Below are positions 611 through 50,767 of a stretch of 60,277 nt of DNA, one piece after another (within the stretch, counting starts at the first letter, position 1; each line of letters opens with the position of its first letter). The notes beneath the pieces are model-generated. The model searched no databases and was not told the DNA's origin. It saw only the letters and a list, made by a program, of their open reading frames with translations. This DNA comes from Chiloscyllium plagiosum (lineage: Eukaryota). Location: the NCBI RefSeq assembly GCF_004010195.1, contig NC_057719.1:2822068-2882344 (forward strand). The letters are read 5' to 3'. The position numbers and the translations under genes were made by a program.

Positions 611-3600
611 AGACCTGTGGCATGTGCCTTTTTCTTGATGTGGGAGCTCAGGAACATGGCTGATGTCCGAGAAGTGTGTCCAGCTGCAGCTCTTATTTGA
701 TTGCATGACGGCTCTGCAGCTGCAGATGAACTCACTGTGGAGCACTCGCGATGCTGAGGAGGTCGTGGATAGCACACTTACTGAACTGGTCACACTGCAG
801 GTTAGAATTGCTAAGGGAGACAGGGAACGGGTGACCAAAAGGCAGAAAAAGAATAGGAAGGCAGTACAGGTGTCCCTGCAGTCATCTCCCTCCAAAACAG
901 ATATACCATTTTGGATACTGTTGGGGGAAATGGCTCACTAGGGAAAGGTAGCAATTGCCAAGATCATGGCACCATGGCGGGCACTGCTGTTTAGAAGGGC
1001 AGGAAAAAGACTTGTAGGGCCATAATCATAGGGGTTTCTATTGTAAGGGAAGTAGATAGGCGGTTCTGTGGCCGGAAACAGGACTCCCAGATGATAGGTT
1101 GCCTTCCAGGTGCTCAGGTCAGGGATGTCACCGATCGGCTGCACAGCATTCTAAAGGGGAGGGTGATCAGCCAGTTGTCTTGGTGCATACAGGTACCAAC
1201 AATATAAGTAAAAAACGAGTTGAGGTCCTGAAAGCAGAATTCAGGGAGCTAGGAGAGAAGTTAAAAAGGAGGATCTCAAAGGTAGTGATCTCGGGATTAC
1301 TACCAGTGCCAAATGCTAGACAGCGTAGAAATGAAAAAAATAGGCAGGATGAACATGTGGCTTGAGGGATGGTGGAGATTCAGATTTGTTGGACATTGGG
1401 ACCGGTTCTGGGGAATATGGAACTTTACAAGATGGATGGTCTACATCTGAACCAGACTGGAACAAATGTCCTTGGGGGAGTTTTTGCTACTGCTGTCGGG
1501 GAGGTTTCAAACTAATGTGGCAGGGGACTGGGAACAAGTAGGCAGCTAGGTGGAAACTGGAGACTCTAAGAATCATGAAAATAGTATTAATAAGGGGAAG
1601 AGTAGGCAGAGAGCAGATGAATGCAAAAGAACTGGTGGCCTGAAGTGTATCTACTTTAATGCAAGGAGTACAGTGAGTAAGGCAGATGAACTTTGGGCTT
1701 GGATTGGTGCCTGGGAGAATGATGTTATGGCAATCACAGAGACTTGGTTGAAGGAAGGGCATGATTGGTAACTAAATGTCCCAGGATATAGACGCTTCAG
1801 ATAAGACAGGGAGGGAAGTAAAAGAGGGGCTGGAGTTGCATTGCTGGTCAGGGATGATATCACAGCTGCGCTAAAGGAGGACACTATGGAGGGCTTGAGC
1901 AGTAAGGCATTATGGGGAGAGCTGAGAAAAAAGGTTGCAGTTACATTGTTGGGGCTGTATTACAGGCCTCCCAAAAGTGAGCGTGAGGTAGAAGAACACA
2001 TAGGTAAACAGATTATGGAAAGATGTACAGGCAACAGGGTAGTGGTGATGGGAGATTTTAATTTTCCCAACATTGTCTGGGATACACTCAGAGTCAGAGG
2101 TCTAGACAGAATAGAATTTATAAGAAGCATCCAGGAGAGTATTTTAGATCAGTATGTCAATAACCCGACAAGGGAGGGGGCCATATTGGAGTTGGTGTTG
2201 GGGAATAAGCCAGGCCAGGTGGTAGACGTTGCAGTGGGGGATTTCTTTGGGAACAGTGACCACGATTCTGTAGGTTTTAGAATGCTCGTAGACAAAGATG
2301 CGAGTGGTCCTAAGGGAAGAGTACTTGGACCAAGGCCAATTATATCAATATTAGGTAGGAGCTCAGAAATGTGGATTGGACACAGCTATTTGAAGGGAAG
2401 TCCACATTTGAGATGTGGGAGGCTTTCAAAGATAGGTTAAAGACAGTGCAGGATAGGCATGTCCAGTTGAAGGCAAAGGATAGGAAAGGCAAGATTCGTG
2501 AACTGTGGATGACAGGAAAAATTGTACGACTAGCCAAGAGGAAAAGGGAAGCTAAGAACAGAATGGGTCCTGGAGGAATATCGGAAGACTGGGACCAGTC
2601 TTAAACGAGGAATCAAGCGGGCTAAAAGGGGTCATGAAATAGCTTTAGTGAGCAGAATTAAGGAGAATCCCAAAGCCTTTTATTCTTATATAAGAAGCAA
2701 GCGGGTAACTAGAGAAAGGATTGGTCCACTAAAGGATAATGAAGGAAGGCTGTGTGTTGAACCTGAGAGAATAGGTGAGATTTTGAATTATTACTTTGTA
2801 TCAGTTTTCACTGAGGAGAGGGACATGATGAATTTTGAGATTAGAGATAGAAGTTTGATTAATCTGGATCACGTTGGCATAAGTAGGGAAGATGTGTTGG
2901 GTAGGCTACAGGTTATTAAGATGGACGAATCCCCAGGACTGGATGGGATCTAGCCCAGGTTGATCCAGATCTATCCCTATTCCTGATTAAGGGCTTTTGC
3001 CCGAAACGTGATTTTCCTGTTCCTCGGATGCTGCCTGACCTGCTGCGCTTTTCCAGCACCACTCTAATCTAAACTCTATCCCAGATTGGTGAGGGATTCG
3101 AGAGAGGAAATAGCTGTGGCACTGACAGATATCTTTGTGGCATCCTTAAATACAGGCAAGGTGCCGGAGGACTGGAAGGTTGCTCATGTTGTCCCCCTGT
3201 ACAACAAAGATAGTAGGGATATTCTGGGTAACTATAGACCAGTGAGCCTGACGTCAGTGGTGGGAAAGTTGCCGGAGAAGGTACTGAGGGATAGGACCTA
3301 TTTATATTTAGAAAAGAATGGGCTTATCAGTAATAGGCAATATGGTTTTATGCAGGGGAGATCGTGCCTTACCAACTTAATAGTGTTGAGTAAGTGACCA
3401 AGTTGATAGATGCTGGAAGGGCTGTTGATGTCATATACATGAACCTTAGTAAGGCGTTTGATAAGGTTCCCCATGGTAAACTAATAGAGAAAGTGAAGTC
3501 ACATGGTGTGCAGCGTGTTCTACCTAGGTGGATAAAGAACTGGTTGAGCAACAGGAGAGAGAGTGTAGTAGTTGAAGGGAGTTTCTTGAAATGGAGAAAG

Positions 3601-13545: not shown

Positions 13546-13764
13546 GAAAGTGAGGACTGTAGATGCTGGAGATCAGAGTAGAGAGCGTGGTGCTAGAAAA
13601 GCACAGCAGGTCAGGCAGCATCCGAGGAGCAGGAGGATCGACGTTTCGGGCATAAGCCTTTCATCAGGAATTGAATCAGCCCTGTTGAAGGGCTTATGCC
13701 CAAAATGTTGTTTCTCCTATTCCTCAGATGCTGCCTGACCTACTGTTTTTGCAGCACCACACTC
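13546..13764. mobile_element. PLE pseudo-LTR fold-back hairpin (older copy)
   Basis: Inverted arms at about 13583-13668 and 13681-13764, with a 12-nt spacer and several mismatches. Confidence 0.85.
13637..13670 (-). ncRNA. Minimal hammerhead ribozyme motif
   Basis: Reverse complement TTC-CTGATGA-A-AGGC-TTAT-GCCC-GAAA-CGTC-GAT, with one stem II mismatch. Confidence 0.75.
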
Positions 13765-14879
13765 GTACAAATATATAAATAGATTATGAAGAGATGGAGG
13801 AGCAACAGGTTGATTTTGGGAGATTTTAATTTTCCCAACACTGACTGGGACTCAGTTAGTGTTAGAGGTACAGGTGGAGCAAAATTTATAAGGAGCATCC
13901 AGGAGGGTTTTATAGAGCAGTATGTAAATAGTCCAAATTGGGAAGGAGCCAGTTTCAGTAGGGAATTGCTTTGGGAACCGTGATCACAATTCTGTAGGTT
14001 TTAGAATACTCATGGACAAAGACTAGAGTGATCCTGAAAGAAGAGTGCTAAACTGGGAAAAGGCCAACTATAGCAAAATTCGGCAGGAGGTGGGGGATGT
14101 GGATTAGGAGCAGCTGTTTGAGGTTAAATCCATATTTCATATGTGGGACGATTTTAGAGAGGTTGATTAGAGTGCAGGACAGGCATGTCCCTGTGAAAAT
14201 GAGGGATACAAATGGCAAGATTAGGGAACCATGAATGAAAGGTCAAATTGTGAGACTAGCTAAGAGGAAAAAGGAAGCATACATAAGGCCTAGGCGACTG
14301 AAAACAAACAAAATTTTGGAAGAATGGCGGGAATGTAGGACCAATCTGAAATGAGGAATTATGAGGGCTGAAATATCTTTAGCCTACAGGGTTAGGGAAA
14401 ATCCGAGAGCCTTTCATTTGTGTATAAGGAGCAAGAGAGTAACTAGAGAAAATGCTGGCTCACTCAAGGACAAAGGAGGAAGTTATGCATGAAGTTAGAG
14501 AAAATGGGTGAGATTCTTAATGAGTACTTAGCATCGGTATTCACCAAGGAGAGCAACATGATGGATGTTGAGGTTACGGATAGATGTTTGATTACTCTGG
14601 GTCAAGTCGGTAAAAGGAGGAAGTGTTGGGTATCTTAAAAGGTTTTAAGGTGCATAAGTCCTCAGGTCCAGGTGGGATCTATCCCAGGTTACTGAGGGAA
14701 GTGAGAGGAAATAGCTGGGCCTTAACAGATATCTTTGCAGCATTCTGGAACAAAGTTGAGGTCGGAGGACTGGAGAAGTGCTAACGTAGTCCCTGTTTAA
14801 GAAGGACAGCAAGGATATTCCAGGCAAATATAGACCGGTGAGCCTGACGTCAGTGTTAGGGAAGCTGCTGGAGAAGATA

Positions 14880-17251
14880 GTCATAGAGATGTACAGCATG
14901 GAAACAGACCCTTCGGCCCAACCCGTCCATGCCAACCAGATATCCCAACCCAATCTAGTCGCACCTGACAGCACCTGGCTCATATCCCTCCAAACCCTTC
15001 CTATTCATATATTCATCAAAATGCCTCTTAAATGTTGCAAATGTACCAGTCTCCACCACTTCTTCTGGCAGCTCATTCCATTCACACCACCCTCTGTGAA
15101 ACCTTGCCCCTTGGGTCTCTTTTATATCTTTCCCCTCTCACCCTAAACCTATGCCCTCTAGTTCTGGACTCCCCGACCCCAGGGAAAAGACTTTGCCTAT
15201 TTATCCTATCCATGCACTCATAATTTTGAAAACCCCTATAAGCCTCCGACACTCCAGGGAAAACAGCCCCAGCCTGTTCAGCCTCTCCCTATAGCTCAAA
15301 TCTTCCAACCCTGNNNNNNNNNNNNNNNNNNNNNNNNNNNNNNNNNNNNNNNNNNNNNNNNNNNNNNNNNNNNNNNNNNNNNNNNNNNNNNNNNNNNNNN
15401 NNNNNNNNNNNNNNNNNNNNNNNNNNNNNNNNNNNNNNNNNNNNNNNNNNNNNNNNNNNNNNNNNNNNNNNNNNNNNNNNNNTCGCTGTCCACTACACCT
15501 CCAATTTTGGTGTCATCTGCAAACTTACTAACTGCATCTCTTATGTTCACGTCCAAATCATTTATGTAAATGATGAAAAGTAGAGGACCCAGCACCGATC
15601 CTTGTGGCACTCCACTGGTCACAGGTCTCCAGTCTGAAAAACAACCCTCCAACACCGCCCTCTGCCTTTGAGCCAGTTCTGTATCCAAATGGCTAGTTCT
15701 CCCTGTATTCCATGAGATCTAAACTTGCTAATCAGTCTGCCATGGGGAACCTTGTCGAAAGCCTTACTGATTTCCATATAGATCACATCTACTGCTCTGC
15801 CCTCATCAATCTTCTTTGTTACTTCTTCAAAAAACTCAATCAAGTTTGTGAGATATGACTTCCCGTGCACAAAGCCATGTTGATTATTCCTAATCAATCC
15901 TTGCCTTTCCAAATAAATGTACATCCTGTCCCTCAGGATTCCCTCCAACAACTTGCCCACCACCGACGGCAGGCTCACCGGTATATAATTCCCTGGCTTG
16001 TCCTTATCACCTTTCTTAAACAGTGGCACATTTGCCAAACTCCAGTCTTTCAGCATCTTACCTGTGACTATCGACGATACAAATATCTCAGCAAGAGGCC
16101 CAGCAATCACTTCTCTAGCTTCCCACAGAATTCTCGGGTACACCTGATCAGGTCCTGGGGATTTATCCACCTTTACCCGTTTCAAGACATCCTGCACTTC
16201 CTCCTCTGTAATATGGACATTTTACAAGATGTCACCATCTATTTCCTTACATTCTACATCTTCCATATCCTTTTCCACAGTAATTACTGATGCAAAATAC
16301 TTATTTAGTATCTCCCCCATTTCCTGCAGCTCCACACAAAGGCCACCTAGCTAATCTTTGAGGGGCCCTATTCTCTCCCTAGTTACCCTTTTGTACTTAA
16401 TCTATTTGTAAAAACTCTTTGGATTCTCCTTAACTCTATTTGCCAAAGCTATCTCATGTCCCCCTTTTGCCCTCCTGATTTCCCTCTTAAGTATATTCCT
16501 ACTGCCTTTATACTCTTCTAAGGATTCACTCGATCGATCCTGTCTATACTTTATATATGCTTCCTTCTTTTTCTTAACCAAACCCTCAATTTCTTTCGTC
16601 ATCCAGCATTCCCTATATCTACCAGCCTTTCCTTGCACCCTGACAGGAATATACTTTTTCTGGATTCTCATTAACTCATTTCTGAAGGCTTCCCATTTTC
16701 CAACCGTCCCTTTACCTGCGAACATCTGCCCCCAATCAGCTTTTGAAAGTTCTTGCCTAATACCGTCAAAATTGGCCTTTCTCCAATTTAGAACTTCAAC
16801 TTTTAGATCTGGTCTATCCTTTTCCATCACTATTTTAAATCTAATAGTCCTACCTTGTCCCTGCCTGCCCTGACTGTTTGACTCACTTCTGTTCTCAAAT
16901 GTACTAGTCTCAGACTGATCTCTTTCCTCACTACCTCCCTGGGTCCCCCCCTCTCACCTTACTAGTTTAAATCCTCCCGAGCAGCTCTAGCAAATTTCCT
17001 TGCCAATATATTAGTCCCCATCCAATTTAGGTGCAATCCGTCCATCTTGTACAGGTCATTTCTACCCCAAAATAGATTCCAATAATCCAAAAACGTGAAT
17101 CCTTCTCCCAAACACCAGCTCGTTAGCCATGTATTCATCTGCTCTATCCTCCTATTCCTGCCCTCACTAGCTTGTAGCACTGGGAGTAATCCAGATATTA
17201 CTACTCTCAAGGACCTCCTTTTTAAATTTCTGCCTAACTCTCTGTAATCTT
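14880..17251 (-). mobile_element. CR1 LINE on the minus strand, internally deleted, spanning an assembly gap
   Basis: Minus ORFs: VVISGLLPV (ORF1), [39 protein letters not shown]. 3' tail at 14880. Confidence 0.92.
15314..15482. other. Assembly gap (169 N)
   Basis: Run of N in the sequence. Confidence 1.
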
Positions 17252-23732: not shown

Positions 23733-24068
23733 TGCAATGGGGTCACCTCTCGTGTGACATGAACCCAAGATCCAGTTGAGGCCATCCTCATGGGAACCGA
23801 ACATTGTTATCAGCCTCTGCTTGGCCACTTTTCTTTGCTGTCTGTCCCAAAGTCCGCCTTCGAGGACGGTCACACGAAGGTCCGAGATCGAATGTCCCAG
23901 ACTGCTGAAGTGTTCTCTGACTGGGAGGGAACATACCTGTCTGTTGTTTGTTGGGTGGTGTCCATCCAGGACAGGCAACAACGAAAAGTGGCTGAGCAGA
24001 GGCTGATAGTCAAGTTCAATACCCATGAGGATAAACGCAACTGGGACCTTGGGTTCACGTCATACAGG

Positions 24069-24284
24069 AGAAAGTGAGGTCTGCAGATGCTGGAGATCAG
24101 AGATGGAAATGTGTTGCTGGAAAAGCGCAGCAGGTCAGGCAGCATCTAGGGAACAGGAGAATCGACGTTTCGGGCATTAGCCCTTCTTCAGGAACCTGAA
24201 GAAGGGCTAATGCCCGAAACGTCGATTCTCCTGTTCCCTAGATGCTGCCTGACCTGCTGCGCTTTTCCAGCAACACATTTCCAT
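24069..24284. mobile_element. 216-bp PLE-derived perfect hairpin mini-element with a 15-bp TSD
   Basis: Arms 24103-24192 and 24195-24284 are exact reverse complements with an AA loop. TSD TTCACGTCATACAGG at 24054-24068 and 24285-24299. Confidence 0.95.
24195..24226 (+). ncRNA. Hammerhead ribozyme core (mirror copy on the minus strand at 24161-24192)
   Basis: C-CTGAAGA-A-GGGC-TAAT-GCCC-GAAA-CGTC-GA. Stem I is short because the fold-back point truncates it. Confidence 0.8.
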
Positions 24285-46528: not shown

Positions 46529-47200
46529 TACAATGTCCAGTTCTATTTGCCCTGTTGTTAAACTGGGGAGGGTTCAGAAGAGATTTACCAGGATGCTGCT
46601 GGGAATGGAGGATTTGCGTTATAAGGAGAGGCTGGGACTTTTTTCACTGGAGCATATGAGGTTGTGGGGTGACCTTCAAGAGTTTTATAAAATCATCAAG
46701 GATTTAGGTAAGGCCCCAGGGATTTCAAGACTACGGAATATATCTTTGAGGTGAGAAGATTAAGATACTAAATAAAAAGGGACAACTTTTTTTTTTAAAA
46801 AGCACAGAGCATGGTTAGTGTGTGAAATGAACTTCCCGAAAATATGATGGACCTGGGTACAGTTAGAACTTTTAAAAGATGCTTGGGTAAGTACATCAAT
46901 AGGCATTTTTTGGAGGGATATAGGCCAACCACCGGAAAGTGGGAACAATTTAGTTTAGGATTATGGTCGGCATGGACTGGTTGGACCAAAGGCCTGTTTT
47001 CATGATGTAAGATTGTAACTGGAACTTTTGCAACCCCTGTTACAGACACTTCTACAGCTGAGGAAATTGTCAACATCGACCACCTGTTATGGAGTCATAA
47101 TCTCATACAGCACAGAAGCGGACCCTTCGGTCCAACCAATCCACGCCAACCATAATCCCAAACTAACTAGTCCCACTTTGCCTGCTCTTGGTCCATATCC

Positions 47201-47365
47201 CTGCCCAAAATCCACAAACCTGACTGCCCCGGACGACCCATCGTCTCAGCCTGCTCCTGCCCAACCGAACTCATCTCGGCATACCTCGACACGGTCCTGT
47301 CCCCATTAGTCCAAGAACTCCCCACCTACGTTCGTGACACCACCCACGCCCTCCACCTCCTCCAG
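47201..47365 (+). pseudogene. PLE reverse transcriptase fragment
   Basis: [55 protein letters not shown]; open reading frame with CpGs intact. Confidence 0.92.
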
Positions 47366-47417
47366 GTTCCAGGTGTCATAGTCAATATTTTTTCAATAAT
47401 TAGTACAGCATTTCTTT

Positions 47418-47544
47418 TTGTGGGAGCTTGCTACATGTAAATTGCCTGCTATGTGTCAACACTGACTGTACTTCCAAAGTACTTTATTGGCTGTAAAGCA
47501 TTTTGGATCTTTCTGTGGCCATAACAGTTACTATATAAATGCAA
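47418..47544 (+). mobile_element. Old Deu-domain SINE (AmnSINE1/SacSINE1-like) 3' tail
   Basis: TTGTGGGAGCTTGCT..AAAGTACTTTATTGGCTGTAAAGCATTTTGG..CTATATAAATGCAA matches my recollection of the DeuSINE tail. Confidence 0.7.
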
Positions 47545-48417
47545 TTTAATTTTAATAACTCAATAGTTACTCATAGAAATCTAATGTTATATCACTGGGA
47601 TGCTTTTTTGCCATTATTATGGCAATAATGTTTTTTTCAAATTTAAAAAAAAGTTATGATATTTCAGCTACTTTAATCCCATGTGTATCACTGATGATTT
47701 GTATTTACTCTGTGGAAATTTTAATTGAGTAGAAGATTTTACTGCATTTTACTTTCTGATTTGCTGTTTGAGAATACTTCAGTGTAATTGGCTGCCAACT
47801 CCCTGCGGTGATATCACTGTTACTGTATGCCTAGTGTTTGTCTTGATCTTGCACATATCAAGAAAGGGAAACTTCATGCCTCAGAGATCACTAGATAGCA
47901 GAAAATCCCTTTAATACTTCAAAGTACTCTTTTGGTATGATCCTAGATATTGAATATTGTTAGATATTATTACTGGAGCGAATCATAGATTTACATTTAA
48001 ATAGTTCCCATTTCTGTCTTTGTTCACTCCTTTCCTCAGCAATATTTTGTGTTTGATTTTGTCTACTTTCTGTGGTTTTATTTACCCTAATGAAGAAGAG
48101 CATATCTTCTCAACATCACAACTATTGATCTCACCCTGCTTGGCTGTTGTATGGAACCCCCTACGTGTTAACCCCTTAAAGCCAAATACATAACAATATT
48201 GTCAAATTTGATGGAATTTTAATGCATTTACTTTAGGGGAAATTTGGCATGTTAATATGCTGCAGTTTTTCTTATCTGCGATGTTTTGTGTTATGTTGCT
48301 GAAAATATTACTGATGAAATACTTAGCAGTTGTAGTAAAATCATGCGTATACTTAGGATGAAGAAGATTATGAGTACCACATATGCTTGGTCCAGTTCTT
48401 GTTGGATTCATTTGGAT

Positions 48418-48832
48418 ATCAAAGTTGAAACTTTATTGCTGGAACAGCACAGCAGGTCAGGCAGCATCCAGGGAACAGGAGATTCGACGTTTCGGGCACA
48501 GGCCCTTCTTCAGGAATGAGCAGAGAGTGTTCAGCAGGAGAAGATAAAAGGTAGGGAGGAGGGACTTGGAGGAGGGGCGTTGGAAATGTGATAGGTGGAA
48601 AGAGGTCAAGGTGAGGGTGATAGGTCGGAGTAGGGTGGAGGCGGAGAGGTCAAGAAGAAGACATTTCCAACTCCCCTCCTCCAAGTCCCTCCTCCCTACC
48701 TTTTATCTTCTCCTGCTGAACACTCTCTGCTCATTCCTGAAGAAGGGCCTGTGCCCGAAACGTCGAATCTCCTGTTCCCTGGATGCTGCCTGACCTGCTG
48801 TGCTGTTCCAGCAATAAAGTTTCAACTTTGAT
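48418..48832. repeat. Near-perfect inverted repeat of PLE pLTR (172-bp arms, 71-bp spacer)
   Basis: 48418-48589 versus 48661-48832, with one mismatch seen. Confidence 0.95.
48733..48768 (+). ncRNA. Intact minimal type-I hammerhead ribozyme (mirror copy on the minus strand at 48482-48517)
   Basis: ATTC-CTGAAGA-A-GGGC-CTGT-GCCC-GAAA-CGTC-GAAT: stem I ATTC/GAAT, stem II GGGC/GCCC, GUC cleavage triplet. Confidence 0.9.
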
Positions 48833-50767
48833 CTCCAGCATCTGCAGACCTCACTTTCTCCTCCATATCCCTCTAAACCTTTCTTATTCATGTACCTATT
48901 AAAATTTCTTTTAAACATTGTAATTGTACCCACATCCACCACTTCCTCTGTAAGTTCATTCCACACGCAAACCAACCTCTGTGTAAAATATCTGCCCTCA
49001 TGCCTCATTTTAAATCTTTCTCCACTCACCTTAAAAACTGCCCCCTAGTCTTGAAATCCCCCATTCGGGGGAAAAGACAACTATCATTAACTCTAACTAT
49101 ACCCCTCTTATTTTAAACTTCTGTAAGGTCACCCCTCAATTTTCTATGCTCCAGTGAAAAACATCCTGGCCTACCCAACCTTTATTTATAACACAGAACT
49201 TCCATACCTGGCAACATCCTGGTAAATCTCTTCTGAAACCTGTCCAACTTAATACTATCCTTCCTATAACTGGGCGACCAGAACTAGACACAGTATTCTA
49301 GAGGAGGCTTCACCAATGTCTTGTACAGCCTCAACATGACTTCCCAACTTATATACTCAGACGTCTGAGCAATGAAGGCAAGCATGCCAAACGCCTTTAT
49401 AACCAGCCTGTCTATATGTGATGCAACCTCAAAGAATTATGTACCTGCACCCCTAGGACCCTCTGTTCTACAATACTACTCAAGGATCTACCATTAATTG
49501 TGTAAGCCCTGCCTTTGTTTGCTCTACCAAAATGTAATACCTCGCATTTATCCAGATTGAACTCCATCTGTCATTTTTTAGCCCACTGACCCATTTGATC
49601 AAGATCCTTTTGTAATATTAGAAAACCTTCACTGACCATTACGCCACCAATTTTGCTGTTGTCCATAAACTTACTAACCATGCCTCCTATATTCTCATCC
49701 AAATCATTTATATAAACAACAAACAAAAGAGAATCCAGACTGATCCCTGTGGAACACCACTGGTCACAAGTCTCCAGCCTGAAAAGCAACTCTCCGTTAC
49801 CACTCTTTGCCTCCTGCCATTAAGCCAATTGGCAAGCTCACCCTGAATCCCATGTAACCTAACTTTACTAATTAGTCTACCATACAAAACCTTATCAAAG
49901 GCTTTAGTAAAGTCCAAGTAAACAATATCTACTGCTCTGCCCTCAACCTTTTTGTTAACTCCCTCACAAAAACTCAATCAAGTTTTTGAAACACGATTTT
50001 CCTTGCACAAAACTATGCTGACTACCCGGTCACATTTTGCCTCTCTAAATGTCCATGAATCCTATCTTTTATAAAAACCTCCAACAATTTACCCACAACC
50101 GATGCCAGACTTACAGGTCTACAGTTCCCCAGTTTCTCCTTACACTCTTTCTTAAACAAATGTTTCTTAATAATCCTCCAGTCATCAGGCACCTCACCCG
50201 TAGTTATGGATGATGCAAATATTTCTGCAAGGGGTTCCGCAATTTCCTCCCTTACTTCCCACACGTTTTAGGATATATTGGATCAAATCCTGGAAATTTA
50301 TCCACATTTATATTCTCTAAGACAGTCCCCGAATTTCCTCTTCTGTAATATTAATTGTTTCTAAAACATCAAAATTTATTTTTGCGCATTCTCTAGACTC
50401 CACTTCTCTCTCCACAGTAAATCTAATGTGAAATATTCATTTTGTATCGTTCCCATCTCGCTATTAGGTACAGGATCCTGAGTGAAGCAGCATGGATGTT
50501 GCAGCTGTTTCTGAGATTTATTATAGTTTTATTACAGCCATTAAGTTAATACATTAATAGAAGATTTGTATTCTTTTTGTTTCATTAACATTAAAACAAA
50601 ACAAAAAAAAGTCATGATTTGTTTTCAAATGGACTTTTTTTTAAAAATAAGACCTTTTAAGAAACTATAGTGCATGGCAAATTTTTTTAAATTCTAAATT
50701 TAGAAACTTGAAAAAACTATATGCATAAAACAGATTTCCACCCAACATTGCTGGAGTTGATAGTCAT

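Follow-up and report, generated by a model that had tools for sequence, protein, structure and literature searches.

Structure of the insertion

The stretch analysed here (the window) comprises 60,277 nucleotides of the genome of the shark Chiloscyllium plagiosum (assembly GCF_004010195.1, contig NC_057719.1, positions 2,822,068 to 2,882,344 of the forward strand). In the window, the 3′ region of an old long interspersed nuclear element (LINE) is interrupted by an insert of 1659 bp (47203-48861), which lies between two copies of an 11-bp target-site duplication (TSD) and consists of parts of a Penelope-like element (PLE) and about 1 kb of other DNA. A previous reading, made from the letters alone and called here the sequence-only reading, had explained this insert as unrelated genomic DNA captured at this site by the PLE. 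Our analysis indicates that the insert is probably a 5′-truncated daughter copy within a non-coding, non-autonomous family of retroposons that exists in many copies and was mobilised by a PLE. The features of the locus are the following:

47093..47202, minus strand: target, left portion of the interrupted 3′ region of the CR1-like LINE (alignment to 14879-14989)
47192..47202, no strand: left TSD copy, TCCATATCCCT (exact 11-mer repeat)
47203..47365, plus strand: sense fragment of the PLE reverse transcriptase (RT) coding sequence, a 5′ add-on to the presumed retrocopy (positions 1501-1663 of the PLE copy L015; the shared G at 47366 is L015 1664)
47366..48419, plus strand: cargo, AT-rich host DNA, positions 1866-2919 of a 3362-bp non-coding unit (alignment to the unit)
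48420..48662, minus strand: left arm of a fold-back, reverse complement of the PLE 3′ region (L015 2829-3071; 98.4% over 243)
48661..48861, plus strand: right arm of the fold-back, direct PLE 3′ end including a tail of 34-35 nt, up to the PLE terminus (L015 2902-3102; 99.5% over 201)
48732..48768, plus strand: minimal hammerhead motif with helix I AUUC/GAAU, core CUGAAGA, bulged A, helix II GGGC-CUGU-GCCC and GAAAC-GUC (by eye against the available part of PMC4209133)
48862..48872, no strand: right TSD copy (exact 11-mer repeat)
48864..49078, minus strand: right portion of the interrupted CR1-like LINE, comprising the end of the region resembling open reading frame (ORF) 2 (alignment to 14981-15191)

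The 11-mer is present at 47192-47202 and again at 48862-48872, exactly as the sequence-only reading had stated. Exact copies at a distance of 200-2000 nt upstream exist for 34 of 20000 random 11-mers of the window. The left flank (47093-47202) is identical to the CR1-like copy at 14879-14989 in 84 of 109 positions, and the right flank (48864-49078) is identical to the copy at 14981-15191 in 159 of 209 positions. The two flank alignments to 14879-15191 adjoin, and their overlap is confined to the duplicated site. Thus, a single target in one old CR1-like LINE tail is split by the insert, and its removal restores the tail, as had been claimed. The name CR1 and the reading of this LINE as a minus-strand element are our assumption, made from reading the sequence. 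A second 3′ tail, presumably also CR1-like, lies in the opposite orientation on the plus strand at 46800-47020 and precedes the split tail by about 70 bp.

The RT fragment is 163 bp long, with a G+C content of 0.61. Among the 40 scored of 2113 candidates, 18 other places match its full 163 bases with 100% identity. Its description as an unmutated PLE fragment is thus correct, but its length had been given as 165 bp. In L015 this piece sits at the start of the match to the RVT_1 domain, which runs from about nt 1508. The cargo has a G+C content of 0.33, compared with 0.42 for the window, and corresponds well to the AT-rich non-PLE stretch of about 1.05 kb that had been described. The DeuSINE tail that had been named within it is a putative one; no second copy of 47386-47570 was found within the window.

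The fold-back is formed by pseudo-long terminal repeat (pLTR) sequences of the PLE. The segments 48413-48589 and 48837-48661 pair along 177 nt with 2 mismatches (98.9% complementarity), in agreement with the near-perfect inverted repeat reported before. As RNA, the fold-back has a predicted folding energy of -373 kcal/mol (z = -31). The insert ends at the same terminus as L015, so the earlier statement that it finishes at the 3′ terminus of the family holds. According to the available part of PMC4209133, minimal hammerhead ribozymes of PLE pLTRs have no helix III, a short helix I and a bulged base before helix II. The motif in the right arm and its mirror on the minus strand of the left arm (about 48482-48518) match this description by eye. 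On both strands the cores (CUGAAGA ... GAAAC-GUC, with a 4-bp helix II and a bulged A) appear intact, in line with the sequence-only reading, and cleavage is predicted after 48764.

Other PLE stubs are present in the window. A solo stub of an older subfamily occupies 24066-24273 on the minus strand; it consists of an inverted arm of 79 nt and a direct arm of 129 nt with a tail, contains no cargo and is enclosed by a 13-bp TSD, TGTATGACGTGAA. Additional decayed stubs lie at 13546-13756 and 2979-3058.

The abundance of PLE pieces, which include the 2113 candidates for the RT fragment and the solo stub, would suit an origin by nested or successive events. The PLE fragment and the unit copy would then be separate insertions, or the unit would have landed in a PLE that was trimmed later, with the 11-mer repeated by chance. 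However, the repeat is exact over 11 bp, excision of the bracketed part restores a continuous CR1-like sequence, and the chance rate of such a repeat is the 34 in 20000 given above. Moreover, two other copies of the family described below (L006 and L073) have the same layout of TSD, sense PLE piece, truncated unit and TSD, with other junctions. We assign only a very small probability to such a history. The enclosure of the RT piece, the cargo and the fold-back by one TSD supports a single insertion event, which the sequence-only reading had also proposed.

A family of 5′-truncated copies in the assembly

A search of the same assembly with the cargo gave 431 candidates, and the 40 that were scored, on nine large contigs (C1-C9), were all 100% identical over 1052 bases. 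The exact 33-mer spanning the junction between cargo and hairpin occurs 300 times in the assembly (142 forward and 158 reverse), and the reversed-pattern controls gave 0 and 0. A 33-mer near the 5′ end of the unit occurs 41 times. A fall from 300 to 41 towards the 5′ end is what truncation at that end would produce. The complete unit is 3362 bp long, and the longest copies extend 1865 bp farther upstream than the window copy. Among the 30 loci fetched with a 5′ part, 24 begin at the same point, GTGTGTGTGTGTGTATACG. The copies have a common 3′ end, and their 5′ starts vary (unit positions 1, 316, 642, 784, 829, 982, 1643, 1835, 1866, 2029 and 2727). The window copy corresponds to unit positions 1866-3362. 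Of its 1497 positions, 1 is different in the reference copy, and there the reference is the outlier. The copies are 5′-truncated versions of one non-coding unit of 3.36 kb. Although 18 ORFs of at least 50 amino acids overlap the unit region of copy L011 (5600-8950), the longest one wholly within the unit has 84 amino acids.

The unit begins at a (GT)7 tract without a pLTR and resembles PLE copies only in its pLTR parts, which are the 3′ fold-back and a decayed internal stub. By eye, the rest is pieced together from old repeats, namely a tRNA-like short interspersed nuclear element (SINE), SINE-like tails and a CR1-like tail; the internal stub is about 90% similar to the young one. The sequence-only reading contrasted young flanks with an old cargo. 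This contrast does not hold, because the cargo was copied along with its flanks and is as young as they are; the old SINE-like content dates only the progenitor locus.

These counts also bear on the idea that the cargo was captured here de novo, when a transcript of host DNA ran into a solo pLTR hairpin and underwent reverse transcription, so that the window would contain the founding transduction. One TSD does enclose all three parts, and the junction between the RT piece and the cargo was seen only in the window among the best 40 of 821 candidates. Against this stand the 300 exact junctions of cargo and hairpin, the additional 1865 bp of cargo in longer copies, and the single difference in 1497 positions from the reference copy. 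Capture of about 1 kb at this site is therefore extremely improbable, and the favoured reading is that the window holds one truncated copy of the family.

The centres of the fold-backs are of at least four architectures among otherwise identical copies (L004-L014, L067-L074 and window 48580-48670). The left arms end at L015 2829, 2837, 2903 or 2940, the right arms start at 2828, 2896 or 2902, and the spacer measures 0, 35-37 or 50 nt. Each architecture is common to several copies.

We also observed a shorter sister family, which comprises 6 of the 28 distinct loci with a 5′ part (L037, L040, L045, L063, L064 and L072; unit positions 1-1512). It stops at the older internal PLE stub of the unit and is followed by a 34-nt tail and then by unrelated flanking DNA. 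Compared with the long family, it has no differences in 1-1290 and 5 shared differences in 1291-1440; the private differences, 1-3 in each member, are restricted to the last 100 nt of the pLTR. This may indicate that the 3′ pLTR part is taken from assorted PLE RNAs, with a homology-guided switch into the unit RNA afterwards.

3′ ends and 5′ junctions of the copies

Two 3′ ends were found, 34-35 nt apart. Of the 17 copies with a visible 3′ end, 12 had the tail and 5 lacked it. TSDs of 10-17 bp were seen in 8 of the 10 copies of the first set, and L073 has a TSD of 12 bp. Thus, an inverted pLTR next to a direct one, an optional tail and a TSD of variable length are all present in the family.

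The 5′ junctions were surveyed in 42 distinct copies, most of which have PLE-derived DNA there, with pLTR-derived pieces in at least 12. An inverted pLTR is joined directly to the unit in 11 of them, starting at either of the two 3′-end sites. A sense piece of the PLE ORF stands upstream of the unit in five copies (the window, L006, L051/L072, L073 and L074), and all five junctions are different. In 16 copies the unit is preceded by a run of N; where the sequence upstream of the run was visible, inverted PLE 3′ sequence entered it in 7 of 9 cases. The remaining junctions consist of a piece of another repeat, "X" (3 copies), mixed pLTR pieces (1 copy), an inverted internal piece of the unit (1 copy) and sequence without a recognisable PLE piece (5 copies).

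The N runs measure from 64 to more than 1316 nt and stop exactly at the first base of the unit in the 16 copies (loci L037-L064), and they do not look like assembly gaps. Those before the (GT)7 start obscure longer inverted PLE add-ons. Similar runs lie over coding parts of the PLE (L019-L021, L024, L026, L028 and L031-L035).

Repeat "X" is itself abundant, with 443 candidates that are 95-98% alike. It is rich in TGACGTCA and ACTTCCG motifs, and a tandem array of 36/72 bp follows the repeat. It was located in L011 (5632-5738), L013 (5517-5681, oriented) and L030 (about 1020-2262), with relatives in L031-L036, and no Pfam family matched its open frame of 230 amino acids. As a 5′ add-on it occurs in three unit copies, two of which are joined at the identical unit position. 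The X pieces are followed by a constant unit start; splicing was considered as its origin and rejected, since there is no GT at the donor sides. Two full-length copies, L069 and L070, have a sense LINE ORF2-like sequence upstream, and no TSD was found for them. This could reflect either a large deletion of the target or a 5′ add-on from LINE mRNA.

The linked Penelope-like element and a proposed template switch

A young PLE in the same assembly, of which L015 is a copy, is linked to the insert at both ends. Its 3′ end is 99.5% identical to the right arm of the window, and the RT piece is 100% identical to many PLE copies. The ORF of L015 matches RVT_1 with 32.8 bits (cut-off 29.6). Its nearest Atlas clusters combine RVT_1 with HTH_animal and come mostly from rotifers and arthropods, which we take as a lead only. 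The sense pieces of this PLE that were found upstream of unit sequence are the following:

Window: L015 1501-1664, joined to unit position 1866
L073: L015 1484-1670, joined to unit position 2029
L074: L015 1502-2396, joined to unit position 2727
L006: a piece farther upstream in the PLE ORF
L051/L072: another piece of the PLE ORF

The start points 1484, 1501 and 1502 are close together, as are the two end points 1664 and 1670. L073 and L074 were found with the 163-bp RT query, so their shared coverage of this region is partly a selection effect, though this does not explain how close the points lie. At the window junction, the PLE reads ...CTCCAGG/ATTTCC, the unit ...GTTG/TTCCAGG and the window ...CTCCAGGTTCCAGG. 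Microhomology between the RT piece and the cargo is at most 1 nt, the G at 47366. A piece in sense orientation is incompatible with priming of the second strand, and a switch of the cDNA from the unit RNA onto PLE mRNA is therefore the simplest account. The RT piece is best explained in this way, as the sequence-only reading had also suggested.

Sense PLE sequence next to the unit might also mean that mobilisation took place in cis. A PLE transcript would have read through 3.4 kb of downstream host DNA to the next stub, and the sense pieces would be remnants after internal deletion. The presence of such pieces directly upstream of the unit part in 5 of 42 copies and the start of three of them within 18 nt fit this idea, which would also account for the high copy number. 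At the same time, 24 of the 30 loci with a 5′ part share the (GT)7 start, and the sequence visible upstream is mostly inverted PLE, not sense. The five sense junctions link different PLE positions to different unit positions, and the progenitor contigs described below, which span part of the unit, show no sign of a PLE at the edges of the cargo. In our judgement mobilisation in cis is very unlikely, and we prefer mobilisation of the unit in trans.

Other read sets and a probable progenitor locus

The locus was compared with three contig sets, X1 and X5 from organism A and X10 from organism B. In each DNA set the cargo lies on one contig, with a depth of 17.1 in X1, 11.3/8.3 in X5 and 12.1 in X10; a flank contig of X1 with 0 differences has a depth of 17.7. 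The match of the cargo contigs to the window ends at 47366 on the left, where the unit continues, and at 48419 on the right. Beyond 48419 the contigs extend for another 1772 (X1), 374 (X5) and 1802 (X10) nt of non-hairpin sequence. Relative to the window, 2 of 1054 positions are changed in X1, which agrees with X10 at both, and X10 has 32 differing positions and 5 gaps. What these sets contain looks like the stub-less progenitor locus, not the amplified family. The sequence-only reading had asked for a donor locus, ideally next to a pLTR hairpin. A contig of single-copy depth with the cargo does exist in other read sets, but no hairpin stands beside the cargo there. It had also asked for an empty CR1 site, which is not among the joints listed. 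A single listed joint spans the insert, leading from 47178 to 48863 through 13 other letters at a depth of 338; it comes from paralogous CR1 copies. No RNA run is among those listed as containing the stretch, and raw reads of the RNA run X22 gave 0 alignments, a count that has no weight as a test.

It is possible, a little short of an even bet, that a PLE stub landed very recently at the 3′ edge of a host locus present once in the genome, and that this led to a burst to about 300 copies confined to the lineage of the assembled animal.

Several results weigh against a real family that was mobilised by a PLE. The cargo has single-copy depth in both organism-A sets and in the one organism-B set, while a family of 300 copies should give hundreds of times that depth. 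The copies are seen only in the assembly, without independent read support, and the best of the runs listed contains 0.78 of the sampled words of the stretch. An alignment of copies totalling about 85 kb places nearly all differences in the pLTR-derived parts, and the unique parts of the unit contain 1 private substitution and 3 differences at the 5′ edge of L060. Such scarce variation agrees with a burst of very recent date, but consensus smoothing in the assembly could produce it as well. The source locus was searched for in the assembly as a cargo end without hairpin (0 found), as a stub terminus followed by the cargo end (0 matches) and as a tail-less terminus followed by the cargo end (2 chance-looking matches). 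The five full-length copies, considered as candidate sources, have no TSD within 550 bp, and none of them can be identified as the source. A TSD of at least 10 bp is present in just 9 of the 17 copies tested; none was seen in the DNA examined around the five full-length copies and L074. The RT of the linked PLE is seen just as an RVT_1-type domain, and Pfam gave no GIY-YIG match in those parts of the L015 and L016 ORFs that are unmasked, several PLE copies being N in part. Rfam gave zero matches in the whole window at gathering scores. For 48380-48900, with E up to 10, it gave 40 matches, none of them a hammerhead; most are microRNA-precursor models driven by the long hairpin.

Some of these results, namely the hairpin-less cargo at single-copy depth in 3 of 3 DNA contig sets, the word share, and near-zero variation in the unique parts with noise in the pLTR parts only, would be expected if the family, its copy number or its near-identity had been made or inflated by assembly or gap filling. 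The structure in the window might then not be real. The assembly consists of 101977 contigs, and the window itself has an N run at 15314-15482. However, the copies have distinct flanks, TSDs of 10-17 bp, varied truncation points and junctions sharing 0-1 nt, and they include several hairpin architectures and both tail states. We know of no assembly error that gives all of these together. It is hard to obtain them by such an error, and a real, very recent and lineage-restricted burst is therefore favoured. An assembly effect has, in our estimate, a very low probability.

Proposed mechanism of mobilisation

The mechanism that we propose starts from the observed copy number, truncation series, common 3′ end, TSDs, 5′ add-ons and hairpin-less form at single-copy depth. 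The unit is a stretch of host DNA built from old repeats, with a young PLE stub at its end that is made of an inverted pLTR piece and the direct 3′ end of a pLTR. A transcript of the source locus would start at the (GT)7 tract and read through the stub, and this RNA intermediate would be taken in trans by the RT/endonuclease protein of the young autonomous PLE. Reverse transcription would begin at one of two internal pLTR sites, giving copies with or without the 34-35-nt tail. The upstream host DNA would be copied next, and early termination, presumably frequent, would produce the 5′ truncation. The 5′ end would then be completed with additional PLE-derived DNA. In the case of the window copy, the cDNA would have left the unit RNA at position 1866 and switched with 1-nt microhomology to PLE mRNA. 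There, 163 nt from the start of the RT domain would have been copied before joining to the CR1-like LINE tail with an 11-bp TSD. The suggestion that a pLTR fold-back acts as a mobilisation tag for non-PLE DNA is supported.

Comparison with known systems

Movement of host DNA by PLE ends has a precedent in rotifers. In the available parts of the paper by Arkhipova et al. 2013 (PMC3846280), to which all statements on this source refer, an intron-containing nonribosomal peptide synthetase gene and "a few other cases" of non-coding DNA lie between pLTRs inside TSDs in Adineta vaga and are mobilised in trans. The Pen1 family has a host-derived spacer of 0.9-1.5 kb before its 3′ pLTR, and the terminal repeats were concluded to be cis-acting sequences (PMC3846280). 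The capture seen in the shark is real, having happened at a source locus and not at this site, and its principle is already in print for rotifers; the sequence-only reading did not know of a PLE-driven transduction system documented in sharks. Our literature search found nothing on pLTR mobilisation of host DNA in sharks. Outside subscription journals and repeat libraries, which this search did not reach, it also found no report of a high-copy family built around just one 3′ fold-back stub.

The endonuclease-containing (EN+) Penelope cases of Adineta vaga resemble the shark unit in having a cargo without similarity to a PLE ORF, borne by PLE ends inside a TSD, for which PLE proteins acting in trans are credited (PMC3846280). 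In the rotifer, however, these are single or few copies with the cargo between two direct pLTRs and an inverted one, and an empty allele was demonstrated (PMC3846280). In contrast, the shark unit has about 300 mostly 5′-truncated copies of one cargo with a 3′ fold-back only. Two direct pLTRs around the cargo were not found in it, and no empty allele of the window site was seen among the joints listed.

Canonical PLEs encode an RT with a GIY-YIG nuclease. Frangieh et al. 2024 showed that a PLE protein starts reverse transcription in vitro at two adjacent internal RNA sites with the tail between them, and that it cleaves and extends both DNA strands, hammerhead cleavage being unnecessary (PMC11167929). 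The shark unit agrees with the canonical architecture of an inverted 5′ pLTR, an optional tail of 30-40 nt and internal initiation (PMC11167929; PMC3846280) in that its two 3′ ends are 34-35 nt apart and its inverted 5′ pieces begin at either of the same sites. Both nicked strands priming at identical RNA sites would give this pattern. It differs in that the template is host DNA and not a PLE ORF, and the sense ORF pieces (5 of 42) are outside the described architecture.

Non-LTR retrozymes, the other known non-autonomous derivatives of PLEs, share with the unit the absence of coding capacity, a PLE-type hammerhead sequence and dependence on PLE protein, according to the available parts of PMC7229834 and 10.64898/2026.07.22.740005. 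These sources describe retrozymes as short tandem units with circular RNA as their presumed route of movement, whereas the shark unit is a dispersed element of 3.4 kb with 5′ truncation and TSDs and gives no hint of circles. Tandem hammerhead arrays, a retrozyme trait, were not found; the copies, of at most 3362 bp, stand singly and are scattered over many contigs.

The course of events proposed here has parallels outside PLEs. LINE-1 5′ chimeras, twin priming, transduction and SVA-type composites involve co-mobilisation of source flanks, 5′ truncation, an inverted segment from the second nick and an RNA switch near the 5′ end. The LINE-1 and SVA systems work like the shark unit, but the unit would depend on a PLE RT and has no poly(A) tail. 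Compared with LINE-1 transduction, initiation at internal pLTR sites means that DNA upstream of the tag is carried, not DNA downstream of it.

Significance for the biology of Penelope-like elements

The mobilisation of PLEs is poorly understood. In the shark, a 3′ fold-back stub alone appears to be enough to mobilise 2.9 kb of unrelated upstream DNA about 300 times. This in vivo family suggests the same as the in vitro work, namely that initiation occurs inside the pLTR and that a small RNA region is enough. The set of junctions, which includes truncation points, inverted and sense add-ons, tail states and hairpin centres, provides data on the start and end of reverse transcription by PLEs. 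During annotation, such units would be mistaken for unique DNA with PLE fragments. If other individuals indeed lack the burst, it would mean that PLEs are active at present in a vertebrate whose genome evolves slowly. The family would then be a live case of transcribed host DNA upstream of a PLE stub becoming a retroposon, and its approximately 300 dated insertions would record PLE template switching in vivo.

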